Below, in pieces: positions 3,977-28,779 of a stretch of DNA of 64,000 nt; within the stretch, counting starts at the first letter, position 1; every line of letters starts with the position of its first letter. The notes below the pieces were generated by a model, which did not search any database, was not told the DNA's origin, and saw nothing but the letters and a program-made list of their open reading frames with translations. The position numbers and the translations under genes are program-made. The stretch lies in contig CAVZDU010000001.1 in assembly GCA_963774265.1 (NCBI GenBank), positions 512,001-576,000 of the forward strand, given 5' to 3'. This DNA comes from an uncultured Chloroflexia bacterium (GTDB lineage Bacteria; Chloroflexota; Anaerolineae; CG2-30-64-16).

Positions 3977-6900
3977 TTAGCCCTCCGCAAAAAGCTGTTC
4001 CAACGCGGTCGCAACCGAATAGGCGTCGCCTTGCAGCCGTGCCACCTGGCATCCCGCAGCACTGAGTGTGCTCTCGGCGCTGGCAGGCACACGATCTCCG
4101 ACGATCGTGACCCGGTTGGCAAGCTTCGCCTCATCGATGCTGAAGCCGCCGGATAGGTCGCCGGTCAGGTAGTGACTTGCCAGAGCAAGCAGAAGCCTTG
4201 CCTCAGCATGGCCTGTCTGATCCGCTGCGGGTGGCGGCGCAAAGAGCAGGTAGTGAGACAAGAGCTTTGCAGGCCCAGGAGGCAAGGTGACATCGCGGAC
4301 GACCGTTGCATCCTCCGGAAGCACGATATCATCTACTATCGCATTGCCATCGCTTACTGCTATGGCGTAGGTCCCCGCGGCAAGGCCGGTGAATTTGAAC
4401 ACACCCTTGCTATCCGCCTCGCTGTGCGCTACTTCCACGTCATCTTTGAGCAAACGCACGAGGGTGTAGGGGAGAGGTGTGCCGTTGGCGTTCAGCACAC
4501 GGCCCTGCAGCGTGCCTCGCGGCCCCTGACTGGGCCAGAGACCGTCGGCCACCTGTTCGCGCTCACCATCAAGTTGAATGCCGGACGCAATTTGCCCCAG
4601 GCCCGCCACCTCAATCGCGTACACACCCGCGGGTAGGTTGGCGAAACGATACGTTCCATCTGCCGCAGTGCGCGTCTCGGCCACCACGCTGCCTTCGCGT
4701 CGCAGGGTAACCGTGCGATCTGCTTGGGGCTGACCCGCACCGTCGGCAATTCGGCCGCGGATCGCGCTCCGCCTGCCAACAGATAGATCTATGGGCGCCA
4801 GCGTCAGGCGGTTTTCGCCGGTGAGGCCAAGATCAGAGAACACCTGTCCCTCTACCTCCAGCCGATAGCGTCCGGGTGGCAGATTGTCAAAGGAGAAGGC
4901 GCCCTGCTGGTCGAGAGGTGCTTGACGGGTCCAGGCCCACGCTGCGGGCGAATACAGGACGGCCACAAGTCCCTCCGGTGCGCCGACGACCGTGCCGCCC
5001 AAGTGGCTGCGCAGGGAAAAGAGCACCTTGAAAAGCGTGCCGGGCGAAACGGCAATGTCCTGTGAAATGACGCCGATGCCCTCCAGGGAGAGCTGGTATG
5101 CGCCGTCAGCCACAGAGGCAAACGCAAACGCGCCGTTGGCAGCCAGCACAGTCTGGCGCGTGGGCGGCGTGGCGCCGGAACCCGCAACACCGGTCAACGT
5201 CACCTTGCGTCCCGCCTGGCCGCCGTAGATGACGCCGTCGACCTGGGCTGGGCTACCGCCGATGGGCCGCAACTGAAAGTTGACCTCGTAAGATATGGGT
5301 TGCCCCTCGCGGCCCGGCACCTTGGCTGTCTCAAGACCATCTGCCTTGTCGCCCGGCCAGTCTTCCTGGATCACTTGCAGCGCAAACGTGCCGGGGGTAT
5401 GCAGAAACTCGTAATAGCCCGCCGGCTTATAGCCATCGCTGCCGGTGACTTTCACGGGGAACTGCGTGCCCGCTGCCGCGCCTTCCCACGACATCTGCAC
5501 CTTGATCCCGTTGAGCGGTGCGCCACTTGCATCGGTGAGAATTCCGTAAAGAATGCGCCGATTGTTGGTTTCTTCAGCGGGCAGCAGTCGTTTCTTGGCG
5601 ACTTCGTACCGATACCCCGCGGCTGTGCCCGTCGTAAGCTTCATGCTCTTGGCCTGCCAACCGTCCAGTGCGATGCCGTCGAGCGTGATGCCCGGCACCG
5701 ATAAACGGTAGGCGCCAAGCGTCAGGCTTGCGAATCGGAAACTTCCATCCGCGCCGGTCTTGTTTGTCGCCACAACTGACCCGTCACGCTGCAAGCTCAC
5801 TTCGATACCTGCAACCGTCGCGCCAGAGGGGTTCTGCACCGTTCCCGAGAGGACGCTGGCCCGTCCGCCGGTGAGGCGAATGGTGATGGCCTGTCCGCCA
5901 CCCTCAACTGCGCTCACACTTCGGCGCACGACGCCCCAGGGTGCGATCGCAATGTCATACGAGCCCGCGGCGAGCCCGCTGAAGGTGAACGAGCCGTCTT
6001 CCTTGGTTTGCATCTTGGAAATCTCATTGTTGGCGAGCAGAAGTTGCACGGTGAGATCGGCCAGCGGCTCATCGGTATCCGCGGGTGACTTTGCCTGAAA
6101 GGCTTGCGCCAGTGGTTCCATCCACCGGTACGCTCGGTAAGGCCTTGAGCGCCGCTACTACCGGCAGTTCGCCATGGAGGTTGAAGTCCTTGTTCCACCA
6201 GTCCGAGTACCACGATTGGCTTTCCCATCCCGGCGCAACGAAGCCGAGGCGGTAGTTTGCGATGAGCCAGTGACACATGGCAAAGAAATTACTGGGGCTG
6301 TGCTGGTTGTGGATCTGGCGCGTGCCCTGCATGAACTCAGCGATCCCGATGTTGCGGTCACGGTGGAGGTCGGGCGTGACCCGGGGATAACGCCGATCTT
6401 CTTTCCACCCTACGACCGGGCCACCCTCAGTGCCGATGATGGGCACCGGGAATCCCAACGCCTGACGTGCGATCTGATCTGTCAGCTGAAAGGCCAGGAA
6501 ACAGGAAGCGTCGTCTTCCAGGGTGTCGCCGGGGTTCTTGTCCGATGCGCGCCACTGGTTGATCTGGTCACGCGTTGCCCCTTCCCACGCCCAGGGCCCA
6601 TGCCGGTCGTACTCCTCCTGGCTGACGGGTTCTCCTTCCTGGTTAACTGGATCGTAGGGGTAGTCGAGCGGATGGTTCAGCGTGTAGTTGTGGACAGCGA
6701 TCCAGGCGCCCTTCTCGAATACGTCGGCGCGTCCCCGTTGAACCACTGCCTCTATCGGGTTGACCCGGCTGCCTACGGCCATCGCCGGGAGGGCAGGGAA
6801 CCCACCCAGTGCAAGCACCTTGTCCGCATCCACAATGAAATTGTCGACCACGATGTCCAGCCAGTTAGGCGGTACATGCCTGTCCTTCCACTCCACAGCC

Positions 6901-23791: not shown

Positions 23792-24919
23792 ATGAGCCAA
23801 CCGGAGCCACCCCGGCCATTATACGGCCAACAACGGAGTTGTCCCCATTGCGGGACACGAGTTGCTCAGAAAGCGGAATCCTGTTTCTTCTGCGGTGCAG
23901 TTCTCGAAACCGCGCCGCGTCGTCGTTTGCGTTTGCCCTGGGCTGATCTCTTCCTTTTCGCTGCCATTGCTGGCGTGTTAGCCGTCTGGTGGTTGCACGC
24001 ACCTGAGTCGCCGGACTCGCGGCAGGATGTCCTCAGCACTCAACGAACGGTCGAGACGCCGACAGTCGCTATGGTGGCAGCACTTGAGTTGGACGACCCA
24101 ACCGCCACGCCCCAGCCCACGCCGATGCCCACTGCGACCACAGTTCCCACCGAGACATTTGTTCCTGTCCCGCTCACGCCGGTGGGTCCGGTCCGCCACA
24201 AAGTCAAGTCAGGCGATACGGTGTCCGCTATCGCGGCCCTCTACGGCTCGACCAGCGGCGAAGTAATCCAGGCAAACGGTTTGAGTGCCGATGGCCGGCT
24301 GAGTGTCGGCCAGGAACTGCTGATACCCGGGGCCGGCGGGTCAGGGGGCGCCGGGCCAACCACGACGCCGGGACCGGCTGGCCTGATGGTCACCGTGAAG
24401 TCTGGCGACACGATTAGCGGGTTGGCAGAACGCCACCAATCACGGATCGATTGGATCATGCAGGCAAACGGCATCAAGGCGGGCGAGACGCTGCACATCG
24501 GGCGCGCTCTCCTGATACCCTTGATTCCTGCAACACCCACCCCGACGCCGACAATCCCTACGACACCGCTACCCGACACGCCCACAGCGACCCCGGGATT
24601 GGCAGCGCCACAACTCCTGACGCCTGGTGATGCGGCGACCATTGCCGGTGAAGACTCGGTGTTGCTGAGTTGGACATCTGTGGGTGTGCTGGCGCCGGAA
24701 GAGTGGTATGTGGTGACGCTCAAGTCACCGGAGAAAGAGACGTCGATCGCCACGTGGTGGACGAAGAGCACCTCTTGGCGGTTGCCCGCGGAGTATCGTC
24801 CAACCGGCAGCGCGGGGGTGGATTACACCTGGCGCGTGCAGGTTCGCAAGGGCGGCGCGGACCAGCCAGGCGAAACCGTCAGTCCGCCGAGCGCAGGACG
24901 GCGCTTCACCTGGCGCTAA
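23792..24919 (+). CDS. Zinc ribbon, TM, two LysM domains and C-terminal beta-sandwich protein
   Basis: CPHC/CFFC; HKVKSGDT and VTVKSGDT LysM repeats; promoter TTGCGT-17-TATAAT at 23753-23781. Confidence 0.85.
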   Translation: MSQPEPPRPLYGQQRSCPHCGTRVAQKAESCFFCGAVLETAPRRRLRLPWADLFLFAAIAGVLAVWWLHAPESPDSRQDVLSTQRTVETPTVAMVAALELDDPTATPQPTPMPTATTVPTETFVPVPLTPVGPVRHKVKSGDTVSAIAALYGSTSGEVIQANGLSADGRLSVGQELLIPGAGGSGGAGPTTTPGPAGLMVTVKSGDTISGLAERHQSRIDWIMQANGIKAGETLHIGRALLIPLIPATPTPTPTIPTTPLPDTPTATPGLAAPQLLTPGDAATIAGEDSVLLSWTSVGVLAPEEWYVVTLKSPEKETSIATWWTKSTSWRLPAEYRPTGSAGVDYTWRVQVRKGGADQPGETVSPPSAGRRFTWR

Positions 24920-25631
24920 ACACCCCGTACAGATTCAGGTTTCCCTCGTGGCCATCGGAGAAAAAGGTCTCGGTGCAAATCAGACCGGCTTCGGTGGCCG
25001 TAGTTTTTAGCGCTGGCTCGTCGATGAAGGCGCAGTAGCGCAGGCCGGGTGCACCCTCCCCCCAACCCATGAGGTGGTCCCCTGATTCTACGCTGTTTTC
25101 CGATATCCCGGCCACTTCCCATGGTGCTATACGCCTACGTAGTCGCTCCGACGTCATAAACTGCCAGGTTGAGATGATCAGGCAGCGGTCGGGCGCGAGC
25201 AGGTCTGCACACTGCCTTAGGAATCGTCTTCGATTTTGGGCGCCGGGGATGTGGTGCAAAACAGCGAGACTGACCAGTGAGTCGAACGTGCCCGTGATCG
25301 TCTGGGTCCAGTCATCAGTGAACAGGTCCGAGACGATGAAGTGCGAGGGAATTTGAGGATGCGCCTGCGCGGTCGAAAGCGCCTGCAGGAGGAGGTTCTC
25401 GCTGCTGTCCACTCCCGTATACTTCCCCTGCCAATTGTTTGCGCCCAGGAAGCCGAGTAACCGGGCATTCCCGCAGCCTAAATCCAATACGTTGGAAGCA
25501 GTCTGCAGATAAGGTAGAATACGATCAAAGCCCGGGGGCCAGGACCGGCGCGTGCGGGCAAAATCGCCGGCGAACTGGGTATAAAACTGTCGATTCAGCG
25601 TCAAGAGCGCTGCGACGGTCTGAGGTTGCAT
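24906..25631 (-). CDS. Class I SAM-dependent methyltransferase, Trm9/ALKBH8-like
   Basis: FY..FA.DF..TR..W, LDLGCGN, FD..VSLAVLHH...RR, LIISTW and RYCAF motifs. Confidence 0.8.
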   Translation of the reverse strand: MQPQTVAALLTLNRQFYTQFAGDFARTRRSWPPGFDRILPYLQTASNVLDLGCGNARLLGFLGANNWQGKYTGVDSSENLLLQALSTAQAHPQIPSHFIVSDLFTDDWTQTITGTFDSLVSLAVLHHIPGAQNRRRFLRQCADLLAPDRCLIISTWQFMTSERLRRRIAPWEVAGISENSVESGDHLMGWGEGAPGLRYCAFIDEPALKTTATEAGLICTETFFSDGHEGNLNLYGVFSAR

Positions 25632-27360
25632 GGATACTAAGACTCAACAGACGTGGCGGCCTCGCGGCCGTGACTTCGACGTAGCGCAACATAGAGAGAC
25701 GCTGCAGTCGATCTTCGATGCTGTGCGACACGCGCGGCACTGGGATGGGCACAGCTTGTCGCGCATCTTAGCACAGCATCCGCGGGTCGACAAGGCCTCG
25801 GTCGCGGCCGGGGAGAACGGCTACTACTCGAAGATTGACCTGGTGCAGGCCTACAAACAGCTTACCTCGACGGGTGAGTTGCCCTTCGAGCGGCATGTAA
25901 TGCGCCGATTGCAGATGAAGCCGGTCCGGACCTCATCGGGCGTGGCGCCCGTCACGGTGTTGACCAGGCCCGCCGGTTGTCCAGGGCATTGCATTTTCTG
26001 CCCGGACGCCGAGGGTATGCCAAAAAGCTATCTGCCGAACGAGCCGGGTGCGCGTCGCGCAGCTCAGTGCGAATTTGACCCGTACCGGCAGGTGATGACA
26101 CGTCTTGCGACATTCAAGGCCATGGGCCACACCGCCGACAAGGTGGAGTTGTTGATTCTCGGCGGCACTTGGAGCGCTTACACCAGGCCGTATCGCCAAT
26201 GGTTCGTGCAGCGCTGTCTGCAGGCGATGAATGAAGCCGCGGGAGAACCAGCGTCGCCGGACAGCAGCGTCGCAGGTACTGAAGCCGTCGACTGGCCGGT
26301 CTTGCAGGCAACGCAGGCAATGAATGAGCATGCCGTGCATCGCAACGTCGGGCTGGTGGTGGAAACTCGCCCGGATTGGGTGACTCCGGCTGAGGTCACT
26401 CACATGCGCCGGCTCGGCGTGACAAAGGTCCAACTGGGCGTGCAGAGCCTCGATGACCGTATCCTGGCGCTTAATCAAAGGGGGCACGACGTGGCTGCTG
26501 TGCGTCGCGCAGTTCGTCTGCTCCGCGCGGGAGGGTTCAAGTTGCACTTGCACTGGATGCCCAATCTCCTTGGCGCCACGCCTGAATCGGATCGGGAGGA
26601 CTTTGATCGCCTGTGGTCGGACCCTGCACTTCGGCCTGACGAGCTTAAGATTTATCCCTGCTCCATCATCGAAGGGACTACCCTGTATGACCTGTGGCAA
26701 GCGGGTCACTTCAGGCCCTATACGGATGATGAACTGGTCGCGTTGGTGGCCGATTGCAAGGTGACGATTCCGCCATATTGCCGGGTCAACCGGGTGTTCC
26801 GTGATATTCCGGCTGATGACATTGTGGCCGGCAGCAAACGTTCCAATCTCAGGCAATTGGTGCAGGGGCACCTTTCCCAGGGCGGGAGGCGCTGCATCTG
26901 TATCCGCTGTCGTGAGATTCGCGATACGCGCTTCGGCGAGAGCGACCTGGCGTTGGCCGGGTATGACTATGACACGGACACGACGCGCGAGCACTTCTTG
27001 AGTTATGACACTCCAGACGGCCGTCTCGCCGGCTTCTTGCGCCTGTCACTGCCCCGCATCGGATCGGACGGCTCAGTTCCACCGGAAGTTGCTGAGGTGT
27101 GGACTGCCATGCCCGAGATTGCCGGAACGGCCATGATTCGCGAGGTGCATGTGTACGGTCCGGCTTTGAGTATTGGCTCGGATAACGCTGGCGAAGCGCA
27201 GCACTCGGGTCTTGGGCGCCAACTCATCGAGGAGGCCAAGCAGCGCGCGCGTGTGGCCGGTTTTGACCGCCTGGCCGTGATTTCAGCAATCGGCACGCGC
27301 CGCTACTACGAGGTCCAGGGCTTTGAGCGCTTTGATCTCTACATGGTTGCTTCGCTTTAG
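25630..27360 (+). CDS. elp3: Elp3-family radical SAM/KAT tRNA U34 acetyltransferase
   Basis: KPVRT.SGV, CPGHCIFCP, PKSY, GGT, ETRPD, LGVQS, LKIYP, R..RDIP, C.CIRCRE, IREVHVYG, QH.G.G and ISAIGTR.YY motifs. Confidence 0.93.
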   Translation: MDTKTQQTWRPRGRDFDVAQHRETLQSIFDAVRHARHWDGHSLSRILAQHPRVDKASVAAGENGYYSKIDLVQAYKQLTSTGELPFERHVMRRLQMKPVRTSSGVAPVTVLTRPAGCPGHCIFCPDAEGMPKSYLPNEPGARRAAQCEFDPYRQVMTRLATFKAMGHTADKVELLILGGTWSAYTRPYRQWFVQRCLQAMNEAAGEPASPDSSVAGTEAVDWPVLQATQAMNEHAVHRNVGLVVETRPDWVTPAEVTHMRRLGVTKVQLGVQSLDDRILALNQRGHDVAAVRRAVRLLRAGGFKLHLHWMPNLLGATPESDREDFDRLWSDPALRPDELKIYPCSIIEGTTLYDLWQAGHFRPYTDDELVALVADCKVTIPPYCRVNRVFRDIPADDIVAGSKRSNLRQLVQGHLSQGGRRCICIRCREIRDTRFGESDLALAGYDYDTDTTREHFLSYDTPDGRLAGFLRLSLPRIGSDGSVPPEVAEVWTAMPEIAGTAMIREVHVYGPALSIGSDNAGEAQHSGLGRQLIEEAKQRARVAGFDRLAVISAIGTRRYYEVQGFERFDLYMVASL

Positions 27361-27743: not shown

Positions 27744-28499
27744 TTGTTGACCGGTAAGCTGGAGGCCGCGCAGGCGCGCATTCGCGACCGCTGGTACCCT
27801 CACTTCTCATGGCTCGTAAATGATGAGACCCCATGGGTTGATTGCACCAAGCCATTGGCTGATTCAGCGTTCGCGTTGATCAGCACCTGCGGGGTCTATT
27901 GCGCCGACAGCCAGTTGCCTTTCGACGCCTGGAACGATCTCGGGGATTCGTCGTTCCGCGAGATTAATCTGGACACGCCTTCCGATCGGCTTGCGATTGC
28001 TCACACACATTACGACCATAAGCAGGTGGCCGCTGATGTAAACGTTGCATTTCCCATTGCGCACTTCCGGCGGCTGGCGGACGAAAAGGTGATCAAGCGG
28101 CTCCATCCCTGGGCTTATAGCTTCATGGGATACTTGCCTGAGCCGCATCAATTAATCACCCGATCGGGCCCGCAGGTTGCCCGGCGTCTCGCTGTCGAGG
28201 GGGTTGATGCGGTGTTTCTGACGCCGTGTTGACCGATCTGTCAACAGTCCGTGGGACTGATTGCTCGGGCCATCGAGGCGGAAGGTATTCCAACTGTGTG
28301 CGTGGTGATGAATCGCGACATCGCGGAAAACGTGGGCATTCCACGTGCACTCTTTGTGCGCTTTCCCTATGGCGCCCCGCTTGGCCCCGCAGGCAGCCCC
28401 GACACGCAGATGGCGGTGATCCGCGATGCGCTTGCCCTGTTGATGTCCGCCACCGCGCCGGGTACAGTTGTTGAATCTACGGTCGAATGGCCGGAGTAA
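27744..28499 (+). CDS. Selenoprotein, GrdB/PrdB-like reductase selenoprotein B family (Sec at TGA 28230-28232)
   Basis: ORFs 27744-28232 and 28251-28499 share a frame. Read-through gives VDAVFLTPC-U-PICQQSVGLIARAIEAEGIPTV. HTHYD..ADVN..FP and FPYGAPLG motifs; downstream hairpin. Confidence 0.88.
28233..28268 (+). promoter_or_regulatory. Candidate bacterial SECIS element
   Basis: CCGA..CAA-CAGTCC-GTG-GGACTG-A-TTG..TCGG directly 3' of UGA; G-first apical loop 18 nt after the UGA. Confidence 0.7.
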
Positions 28500-28524: not shown

Positions 28525-28779
28525 ATGCGGATCACGATCGAATTCTGCGTGGCGTGAAACTACACGCCTCGGGCCGCCAGTTTGGCGGAAACGCTGGCTA
28601 ACACGTTCAAGCCGGTCGTCGGAGGACGACACCCTATTGAAGCGATCGTGCTTGTTCCCTCCGGCAACGGTCGGTACGAAGTTACAATCGACGACGAATT
28701 AGTCTATTCTAAGGCGGCCACCGGCGTACATACGACTAACGATTTCATCGTCGACAAGGTGCGTGCACGGCTGAAGTAA
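28525..28779 (+). CDS. Selenoprotein, SelW/SelT/SelH (Rdx) family (Sec at TGA 28555-28557)
   Basis: AGGAGA RBS; MRITIEFCVA-U-NYTPRAASLAE (CxxU), then G.YEV..D.ELVYSK. Confidence 0.9.
28574..28588 (+). promoter_or_regulatory. Candidate bacterial SECIS apical hairpin
   Basis: CCGCCA-GTT-TGGCGG; G-first loop 22 nt after the UGA. Confidence 0.6.

Follow-up and report, generated by a model that had tools for sequence, protein, structure and literature searches.

We analyzed a window of 64,000 nucleotides (positions 512,001 to 576,000 of contig CAVZDU010000001.1, assembly GCA_963774265.1) from an uncultured Chloroflexia bacterium, in which a gene for Elp3 lies head to head with a gene for a putative Trm9-like methyltransferase. 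A sequence-only reading had proposed that this pair is a bacterial version of the eukaryote-type pathway to 5-methoxycarbonylmethyluridine at the tRNA wobble position (mcm5U34), which would proceed through 5-carboxymethyluridine (cm5U). The features of the pair are:

24906..25631, minus strand: Trm9-like class I S-adenosylmethionine (SAM)-dependent methyltransferase, 241 amino acids (aa); predicted methyl esterification of cm5U34 to mcm5U34.
25630..27360, plus strand: elp3, radical-SAM plus GNAT/KAT protein, 576 aa; single-subunit; predicted tRNA U34 C5-carboxymethyl (cm5U) synthase.
25629..25632, no strand: CATG palindrome common to both divergent start codons, read directly from the sequence.

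Both open reading frames lie where the earlier reading had placed them, back to back without any spacer. The elp3 ATG occupies 25630-25632, and the methyltransferase ATG is the complement of 25629-25631. The same -1 spacing of the two starts is found in the two closest relatives (loci L011 and L012), and a GAGG lies 4 nt ahead of the elp3 ATG. Owing to this overlap of the start codons, the promoter and the ribosome-binding region of each gene must presumably sit inside the opposing coding sequence. A promoter scan found a single sigma-70-like site (25492-25520, plus strand), which is the chance level (1 found, 0.8 expected). A search of sequencing runs listed no RNA run; its matches were DNA runs from soil and sediment metagenomes, with small word shares.

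The plus-strand protein can be firmly identified as Elp3. It scored 481.3 bits over its whole length against NCBIfam model TIGR01211 (cut-off 350). Its top match in the Protein Data Bank (PDB) was Dehalococcoides mccartyi Elp3 (DmcElp3; 5l7j, E 1.6e-105, residues 97-573 aligned), followed by the archaeal, mouse, human, and yeast enzymes. The residues of the Fe-S triad, C117, C121, and C124 within GCPGHCIFCP, align with the DmcElp3 triad, and the alignment to 5l7j shows that the C-x-C-x2-C zinc motif is also kept. As expected of a GNAT/KAT domain, the acetyl-CoA motif QHxGxG is retained (QHSGLGRQL, compared to QHRGLGRKL in 5l7j). Pfam detected Radical_SAM (40.8 bits, cut-off 29.5) together with Radical_SAM_C, while its GNAT models stayed under the cut-off (19.8 versus 23.6). 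The protein differs from DmcElp3 in carrying an N-terminal extension of 95 residues. Two observations lend credibility to a start at 25630 or close to it: this extension is conserved at the protein level in 20 of the 80 related loci described below, and the Elp3 alignments of close relatives mostly begin at query residues 1-8.

The methyltransferase translation contains every motif that had been quoted for it: FYTQFAGDFARTRRSW, LDLGCGN, FDSLVSLAVLHH...NRRR, LIISTW, and RYCAF. Its AlphaFold model (pLDDT 92) has a Rossmann-type fold, and LDLGCGN, at residues 49-55, corresponds to the class I motif D-x-G-C-G-N-G. When the single sequence was compared with the PDB using phmmer, Yarrowia lipolytica Trm9 (5cm2_Z) came first (34.9 bits, E 1.1e-7; E 0.006 for the runner-up). 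We also built three profiles, from 23 close homologues (A1), from 27 family members of several phyla (A2), and from 21 members of a Dehalococcoidia-type subfamily (A3). With A2, Yarrowia Trm9 was the top PDB match over a single stretch (55.6 bits, positions 26-224); two plant enzymes reached 58.9 and 55.7 bits, each by summing two domains (~35 + ~20 bits), and the next single-domain match scored 52.6 bits. With A3, Trm9 was again first (76.1 bits), and the runner-up (74.8 bits) aligned to the SAM-binding half only. Yarrowia Trm9 is among the few PDB matches whose A2 and A3 alignments reach the C-terminal half.

The family is single-copy and distinct in the host genome, where the A2 score falls from 297.5 bits for the window protein to 44.2 for the next-best paralogue, below that of Trm9 itself (55.6). 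JGI automatic names among 120 listed homologues include TRM9 (17) and alkB family protein 8 (2), 19 in all. Three homologue searches returned bacterial and metagenomic proteins only, with no named eukaryotic or archaeal Trm9, and a language-model atlas returned only generic clusters of class I SAM-dependent methyltransferases, from Chloroflexota and Actinomycetota. A search for longer proteins gave two matches, neither of them ALKBH8, and, as weak evidence, no fusion of a family member to Elp3 or Trm112. One metagenomic protein, P0121 (527 aa), joins a Trm9-like methyltransferase (residues 1 to ~250) to a SpoU-family RNA 2′-O-methyltransferase domain (382-516); the RlmB, TrmL, and TrmH models match this domain under their cut-offs only, such that no subfamily can be assigned. 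Fusion to an RNA methyltransferase of the SpoU type fits an RNA substrate.

In these comparisons, it is the active site that singles out Trm9 among methyltransferases. In yeast Trm9 (ScTrm9), alanine mutants of R29, D72, H116, W145, W168, R241, Y243, and N271 are reported to be zymocin-resistant in the part of Letoquart et al. (2015; PMC4678810) that we used. We mapped these positions through the hidden Markov model (HMM) alignment of A2 to 5cm2_Z, in which six of the eight (R29, D72, H116, W145, W168, and R241) pair with conserved family residues:

ScTrm9 R29: window R28; conserved, kept in at least 90% of A2.
ScTrm9 D72: window D50; conserved, invariant in A2.
ScTrm9 H115/H116: window H126/H127; conserved, both invariant in A2.
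ScTrm9 W145: window W156; conserved, invariant in A2.
ScTrm9 W168: window W190; conserved, kept in most of A2.
ScTrm9 R241: window R198; conserved, invariant in A2.
ScTrm9 Y243: window C200 (in RYCAF); not conserved, Cys in most of A2 (RYCH).
ScTrm9 N271 (proposed uracil-ring reader): window N233 (likely); outside the HMM alignment.

N233 (in LNLY) is nearly invariant and lies on the last strand, and the alignment to 5cm2_Z ends before it. The claimed resemblance to Trm9 holds for most of the active site. In overall similarity, the lead of Trm9 in the PDB is small, and fold searches could not tell Trm9 from other class I methyltransferases, mostly small-molecule enzymes with equal scores. We regard the window enzyme as a homologue of Trm9 that probably acts in a similar way.

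The position of Tyr243 is occupied by Tyr in the Dehalococcoidia-type subfamily. We opened six elp3 loci of this type. In five, a weaker A2 match (44-76 bits) is directly divergent from elp3; in the sixth, L093, no A2 match was found beside elp3. The neighbor in L091 (224 aa) reads VASFHH, TVWN, and RYYH and shares 91% identity with a protein listed by NCBI under Dehalococcoides mccartyi. The window methyltransferase is 25% identical to this subfamily and reads RYCA/RYCH rather than RYYH. An hhalign comparison joined the two subfamilies with a probability of 99.5% and aligned their HH, W, W, and R-Y positions with one another, and on this comparison they are clearly one family. DmcElp3 (5L7J) not only belongs to the same enzyme family as the window Elp3; elp3 genes of the Dehalococcoides type also have a divergent Trm9-like neighbor.

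We determined how widely the pairing is conserved. Prokaryotes were scanned at one genome per species, which gave more than 424 stretches with a gene for a relative of the methyltransferase; the best 80 of these were kept, with taxonomy taken from the record titles. These 80 loci come from Chloroflexota (Anaerolineae, Caldilineae, and others), from Patescibacteria (Pacebacteria, Saccharibacteria, Dojkabacteria, and Woesebacteria), and from Thermoanaerobaculia and other Acidobacteriota, Myxococcales, Polyangiales, Deltaproteobacteria, Gammaproteobacteria, Spirochaetes, and one member of the Limisphaerales. In 67 of the 80, elp3 is present, invariably upstream of the methyltransferase gene and on the opposite strand. 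Measured to the first aligned Elp3 residue, the two genes lie less than 450 nt apart in 46 of these 67 and 0.76-2.3 kb apart in the other 21, the latter partly owing to frameshifted assemblies. Thirteen loci lack elp3, two of which (L033 and L037) have no upstream DNA. For the remaining 11, all but L072 were tested, and each of the 10 genomes encodes an Elp3 over the cut-off elsewhere. Elp3 was over the cut-off in none of 10 bacterial control genomes. The pairing is far beyond chance, and the conserved linkage that the earlier reading had called for is present, with adjacency in 67 of 80 loci and an elp3 elsewhere in every exception tested. Functional coupling to Elp3 is thereby indicated only through gene linkage and co-occurrence.

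Two kinds of deviating loci were noted. In L052 (Candidatus Multivorans), a short-chain dehydrogenase/reductase gene (5140-5952, plus strand) lies between elp3 and the methyltransferase gene, in the direction of the latter. Similar gaps of 0.9-1.1 kb occur in L049, L055, L057, L060, L068, L070, and L082; loci with this gap belong to Multivorans, Thermoanaerobaculia, and another Acidobacteriota genome, and L052 alone was opened. The family members in L063 (5044-5826) and L086 (6001-6771) do not adjoin elp3 and are without the N-terminal T-R motif that holds the counterpart of ScTrm9 R29, reading NQDPN and NTNMN, respectively. These two may be a diverged subgroup.

MnmE and MnmG, with MnmC, are the bacterial route to 5-carboxymethylaminomethyluridine (cmnm5U) and 5-methylaminomethyluridine (mnm5U) at position 34, combined with thiolation by MnmA. 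They fill the same role as the proposed module, providing a C5 side chain for the wobble uridine of the same tRNAs, through unrelated enzymes and chemistry. We compared the distribution of the two systems in 151 Chloroflexota genomes, using the curated cut-off for Elp3, E <= 1e-25 for the methyltransferase, and E <= 1e-100 for MnmG. Elp3 was over the cut-off in 30 genomes. The methyltransferase was present in 17, all of them Elp3-positive, and in none of the 121 Elp3-negative genomes. The remaining 13 genomes with Elp3, in which no strong match to the methyltransferase was seen, are small and of the Dehalococcoidia type. MnmG was present in 71 genomes, none of which was among the 30 with Elp3, such that Elp3 and MnmG are mutually exclusive in this sample. 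The tallies include two genomes flagged as unpublished (G038 and G145), both MnmG-positive and Elp3-negative. Another 50 of the 151 genomes lacked both proteins at the thresholds used. MnmG was also not found in any of five further carriers of the methyltransferase with complete or chromosome-level genomes.

The host assembly (5.5 Mb in 10 contigs, 84% complete) comes from what was characterized as a soil-type Chloroflexota bacterium. Neither MnmE (TIGR00450; best 114.4 bits, cut-off 252.6) nor MnmG (TIGR00136; best 40.3 bits, cut-off 524.85) was over the cut-off in this genome, which, with the absence of MnmG from 30 of 30 Elp3-positive genomes, favors the earlier reading on the question that it had raised about mnmE and mnmG. 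MnmA is present (336.9 bits). The genome has 50 tRNA genes, including those for Lys-UUU, Glu-UUC, Gln-UUG, Arg-UCU, Gly-UCC, and Leu-UAA.

The sequence-only reading had found no Trm112-like gene in the window, and this proved correct for the whole contig, on which there is no Trm112 domain. The same holds for the 84%-complete genome as far as a free-standing Trm112 is concerned. The sole match to PF03966 in the genome, on contig C5, is a 488-aa protein with the order methyltransferase, Trm112p zinc ribbon, methyltransferase (L010, 811-2277, G000:C5). Of five carriers of the methyltransferase family with complete or chromosome-level genomes, three likewise gave no match to PF03966. Thus, genome content gives no sign of an obligate Trm112 partnership and, as no free-standing Trm112 was found, the enzyme is probably Trm112-independent. 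We asked if self-association could replace Trm112, and the homodimer prediction (score 0.00) gave no evidence either way.

A model that accommodates these data, and that we consider probable, is that the two genes form a wobble-uridine modification module that replaces MnmE and MnmG. Elp3 would act independently of the rest of Elongator, as in archaea and Dehalococcoides, and use its radical SAM chemistry and acetyl-CoA to make cm5U at U34 of the tRNAs that read split codon boxes. The divergently encoded Trm9-like enzyme would then use SAM to methylate the cm5U carboxylate, giving mcm5U, probably without Trm112, unlike eukaryotic and archaeal Trm9. MnmA could add the 2-thio group, resulting in 5-methoxycarbonylmethyl-2-thiouridine (mcm5s2U) on the tRNAs for Glu, Gln, and Lys. 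The module would substitute for the MnmE/MnmG route, which was not found in the host or its Elp3-bearing relatives. We infer that the two genes are co-regulated. The proposal of a bacterial Elp3-Trm9 pathway is thus supported by the conserved linkage, the lack of MnmG, and the retention of most active-site residues, with mcm5U as its predicted product. Each of the suggested computational checks that were run turned out in its favor.

Several observations weigh against this model. For the methyltransferase, Pfam matched only the generic families Methyltransf_23, 12, 25, and 11, and the NCBIfam scan (E <= 0.01) listed 15 families, all far under their cut-offs. Trm9 ranked 13th in the PDB with the A1 profile (30.4 bits), and its lead over unrelated methyltransferases with A2 and A3 is 1-3 bits. 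Tyr243 is replaced by Cys, and the likely counterpart of N271 falls outside the alignment. At 84% completeness, the host genome taken alone does not prove that MnmE, MnmG, and Trm112 are missing, and because related genomes are non-independent samples, our counts are given without statistics. As far as the consulted part of Abbassi et al. (2020; PMC7663514) goes, xcm5U has not been directly demonstrated in bacteria, and DmcElp3 is very weakly active.

Some of these observations could be explained if the methyltransferase acts on tRNA in the Elp3 pathway and makes a product other than mcm5U, either by modifying another atom of the side chain or base or by acting on an Elp3 product that is not cm5U. 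The Tyr-to-Cys change, found in the window enzyme and most of A2, would then mark an altered specificity; no Trm112 partner was found, the linkage to elp3 is as strong an argument here as for mcm5U, and the consulted part of PMC7663514 indicates that in vivo measurements have never been made of the product of a bacterial Elp3. We nevertheless consider this unlikely, since the enzyme keeps the residues proposed to hold the carboxylate of cm5U and its uracil ring (the counterparts of R29, H115/H116, R241, and W145), and since the Dehalococcoidia-type members, clearly of the same family, retain the full RYYH. It is less likely still that the target is a small molecule, a protein (even Elp3), or another RNA, and that the two genes share only regulation or co-transfer. 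Such a target would fit the generic or weak small-molecule matches in Pfam and NCBIfam (UbiG, 34.7 bits with a cut-off of 103), the many small-molecule enzymes that score equally with Trm9 in fold searches, and the 21 of 67 loci with a 0.76-2.3 kb gap, including L052 with its intervening dehydrogenase gene. However, a neighborhood that arose by chance or for regulation would not persist across several phyla. The co-occurrence is also strict, as the methyltransferase was found in 17 genomes with Elp3 and in none of 121 without, and all 10 tested genomes with unlinked genes retain Elp3. In addition, the HH, W, W, and R-Y-x-H positions that the family conserves match those of Trm9.

The pair could also be an inactive relic, with U34 left unmodified at C5 or modified by some unknown route. 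The very weak in vitro activity of the bacterial Elp3 that was tested, DmcElp3 (PMC7663514, in the part consulted), would fit this, as would the 50 of 151 genomes with neither Elp3 nor MnmG, which suggest that life without either is possible in this phylum. We regard a relic as very improbable. Both open reading frames are intact, the catalytic residues are invariant across phyla, and the pair is retained in a complete Dojkabacteria genome of 0.86 Mb (L078), which argues for selection on function. The two-gene route to mcm5U, with Elp3 making cm5U and the Trm9-like enzyme esterifying it, remains the explanation that we favor.

The enzyme shares much with eukaryotic Trm9-Trm112 and ALKBH8-TRMT112. 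These are likewise class I enzymes with D-x-G-C-G-N-G, an HH after strand 4, the tryptophans, and an R-Y-x-H strand; they have the N-terminal Y...TR motif, and they too are functionally tied to Elp3. The window enzyme differs from them in having no AlkB or RRM domain and a Cys for Tyr243, in the absence of a free-standing Trm112 from its genome, and in the divergent pairing of its gene with elp3, and its similarity to Trm9 is low (30.4-55.6 bits for the window subfamily, 76 bits for A3). Since neither a Trm112 partnership nor Tyr243 is found, we do not count it as a member of the Trm9-Trm112 holoenzyme type. A second comparison is CmoM (SmtA), which in Gammaproteobacteria methyl-esterifies uridine 5-oxyacetic acid (cmo5U) to its methyl ester (mcmo5U). 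CmoM also carries out a SAM-dependent esterification of a carboxylate on the U34 side chain, in a pathway with CmoA and CmoB rather than Elp3; no CmoM model was among the NCBIfam matches to the window methyltransferase at E <= 0.01.

In gene organization, the closest analogue in the sources consulted is archaeal. According to the parts of these papers that we used, Haloferax volcanii Trm9 (HVO_1032) partners Trm112, and elp3 and trm9 are clustered in Sulfolobus solfataricus (Grosjean et al., 2008, PMC2584109; van Tran et al., 2018, PMC6144793). Archaea have the same single-subunit Elp3 without Elp1, 2, 4, 5, and 6 and the same clustering. However, their Trm9 is characterized as a Trm112 partner, while the family described here is bacterial and widespread in several phyla. 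The consulted portion of Abbassi et al. (PMC7663514) places bacterial Elp3 in one clade, Dehalococcoides. In the available text of a 2026 paper (PMC13315578), Elp3 is described as conserved in "numerous bacteria," and a bacterial Trm9 partner goes unmentioned. Reviews, in the excerpts consulted, treat mcm5U and mcm5s2U as eukaryotic and partly archaeal. Our literature search found no description of a bacterial elp3-Trm9-like pair.

Other genes surround the pair. A gene for a zinc-ribbon and double-LysM protein (23792-24919, plus strand) is convergent on the methyltransferase gene, with a 14-nt overlap at the 3′ end of the latter, and is kept at the same position in 11 of the 80 loci, all close relatives. 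Beyond elp3 are the two selenoprotein genes of the earlier reading, both confirmed as candidates:

27744-28499, plus strand: GrdB/PrdB-family candidate selenoprotein, ~251 aa, with an in-frame TGA as U163 in TPCUPIC.
28525-28779, plus strand: SelW/SelT/Rdx-family candidate selenoprotein, with a C-V-A-U redox motif and TGA as selenocysteine.

The halves of the first protein scored 90 and 35.9 bits against TIGR04483, far under the cut-off of 300, and on these scores it is a short, uncharacterized family member. The host genome encodes a tRNA-Sec (G000:C2:93922-94017), and it is credible that both are selenoprotein genes. The suggested link between them and the pair is not supported. A PrdB-like gene follows elp3 in 4 of the 80 loci and a SelW-like gene in 5, in close relatives only, which gives no sign of membership in the module; we rejected them as parts of it and read their position as local synteny. 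Outside the window, ARAGORN called a tRNA with a CUA anticodon (G000:C1:1112899-1112990) and labeled it tRNA-Pyl; this may be a true pyrrolysine tRNA, but a suppressor tRNA or an erroneous call would also fit.

We see an even balance for and against a broader reading, in which whole bacterial lineages have exchanged MnmE and MnmG for the archaeal/eukaryotic Elp3 route with a Trm112-independent Trm9 that makes mcm5U or mcm5s2U. The compact divergent cassette, in some cases with overlapping start codons, would then be the unit of inheritance or of transfer from phylum to phylum, and perhaps even across domains. These lineages may include Chloroflexota of both the Anaerolineae and Dehalococcoidia types, many Patescibacteria, Thermoanaerobaculia, and others. 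If true, a conserved bacterial Elp3-Trm9 pair in several phyla without MnmG would change the picture of how wobble chemistries are distributed among organisms. It would also provide a Trm112-free Trm9 for structural and mechanistic study, as well as simple two-gene material with which to study or transplant the pathway, and it would account for the decoding of split codon boxes in Patescibacteria with reduced genomes.

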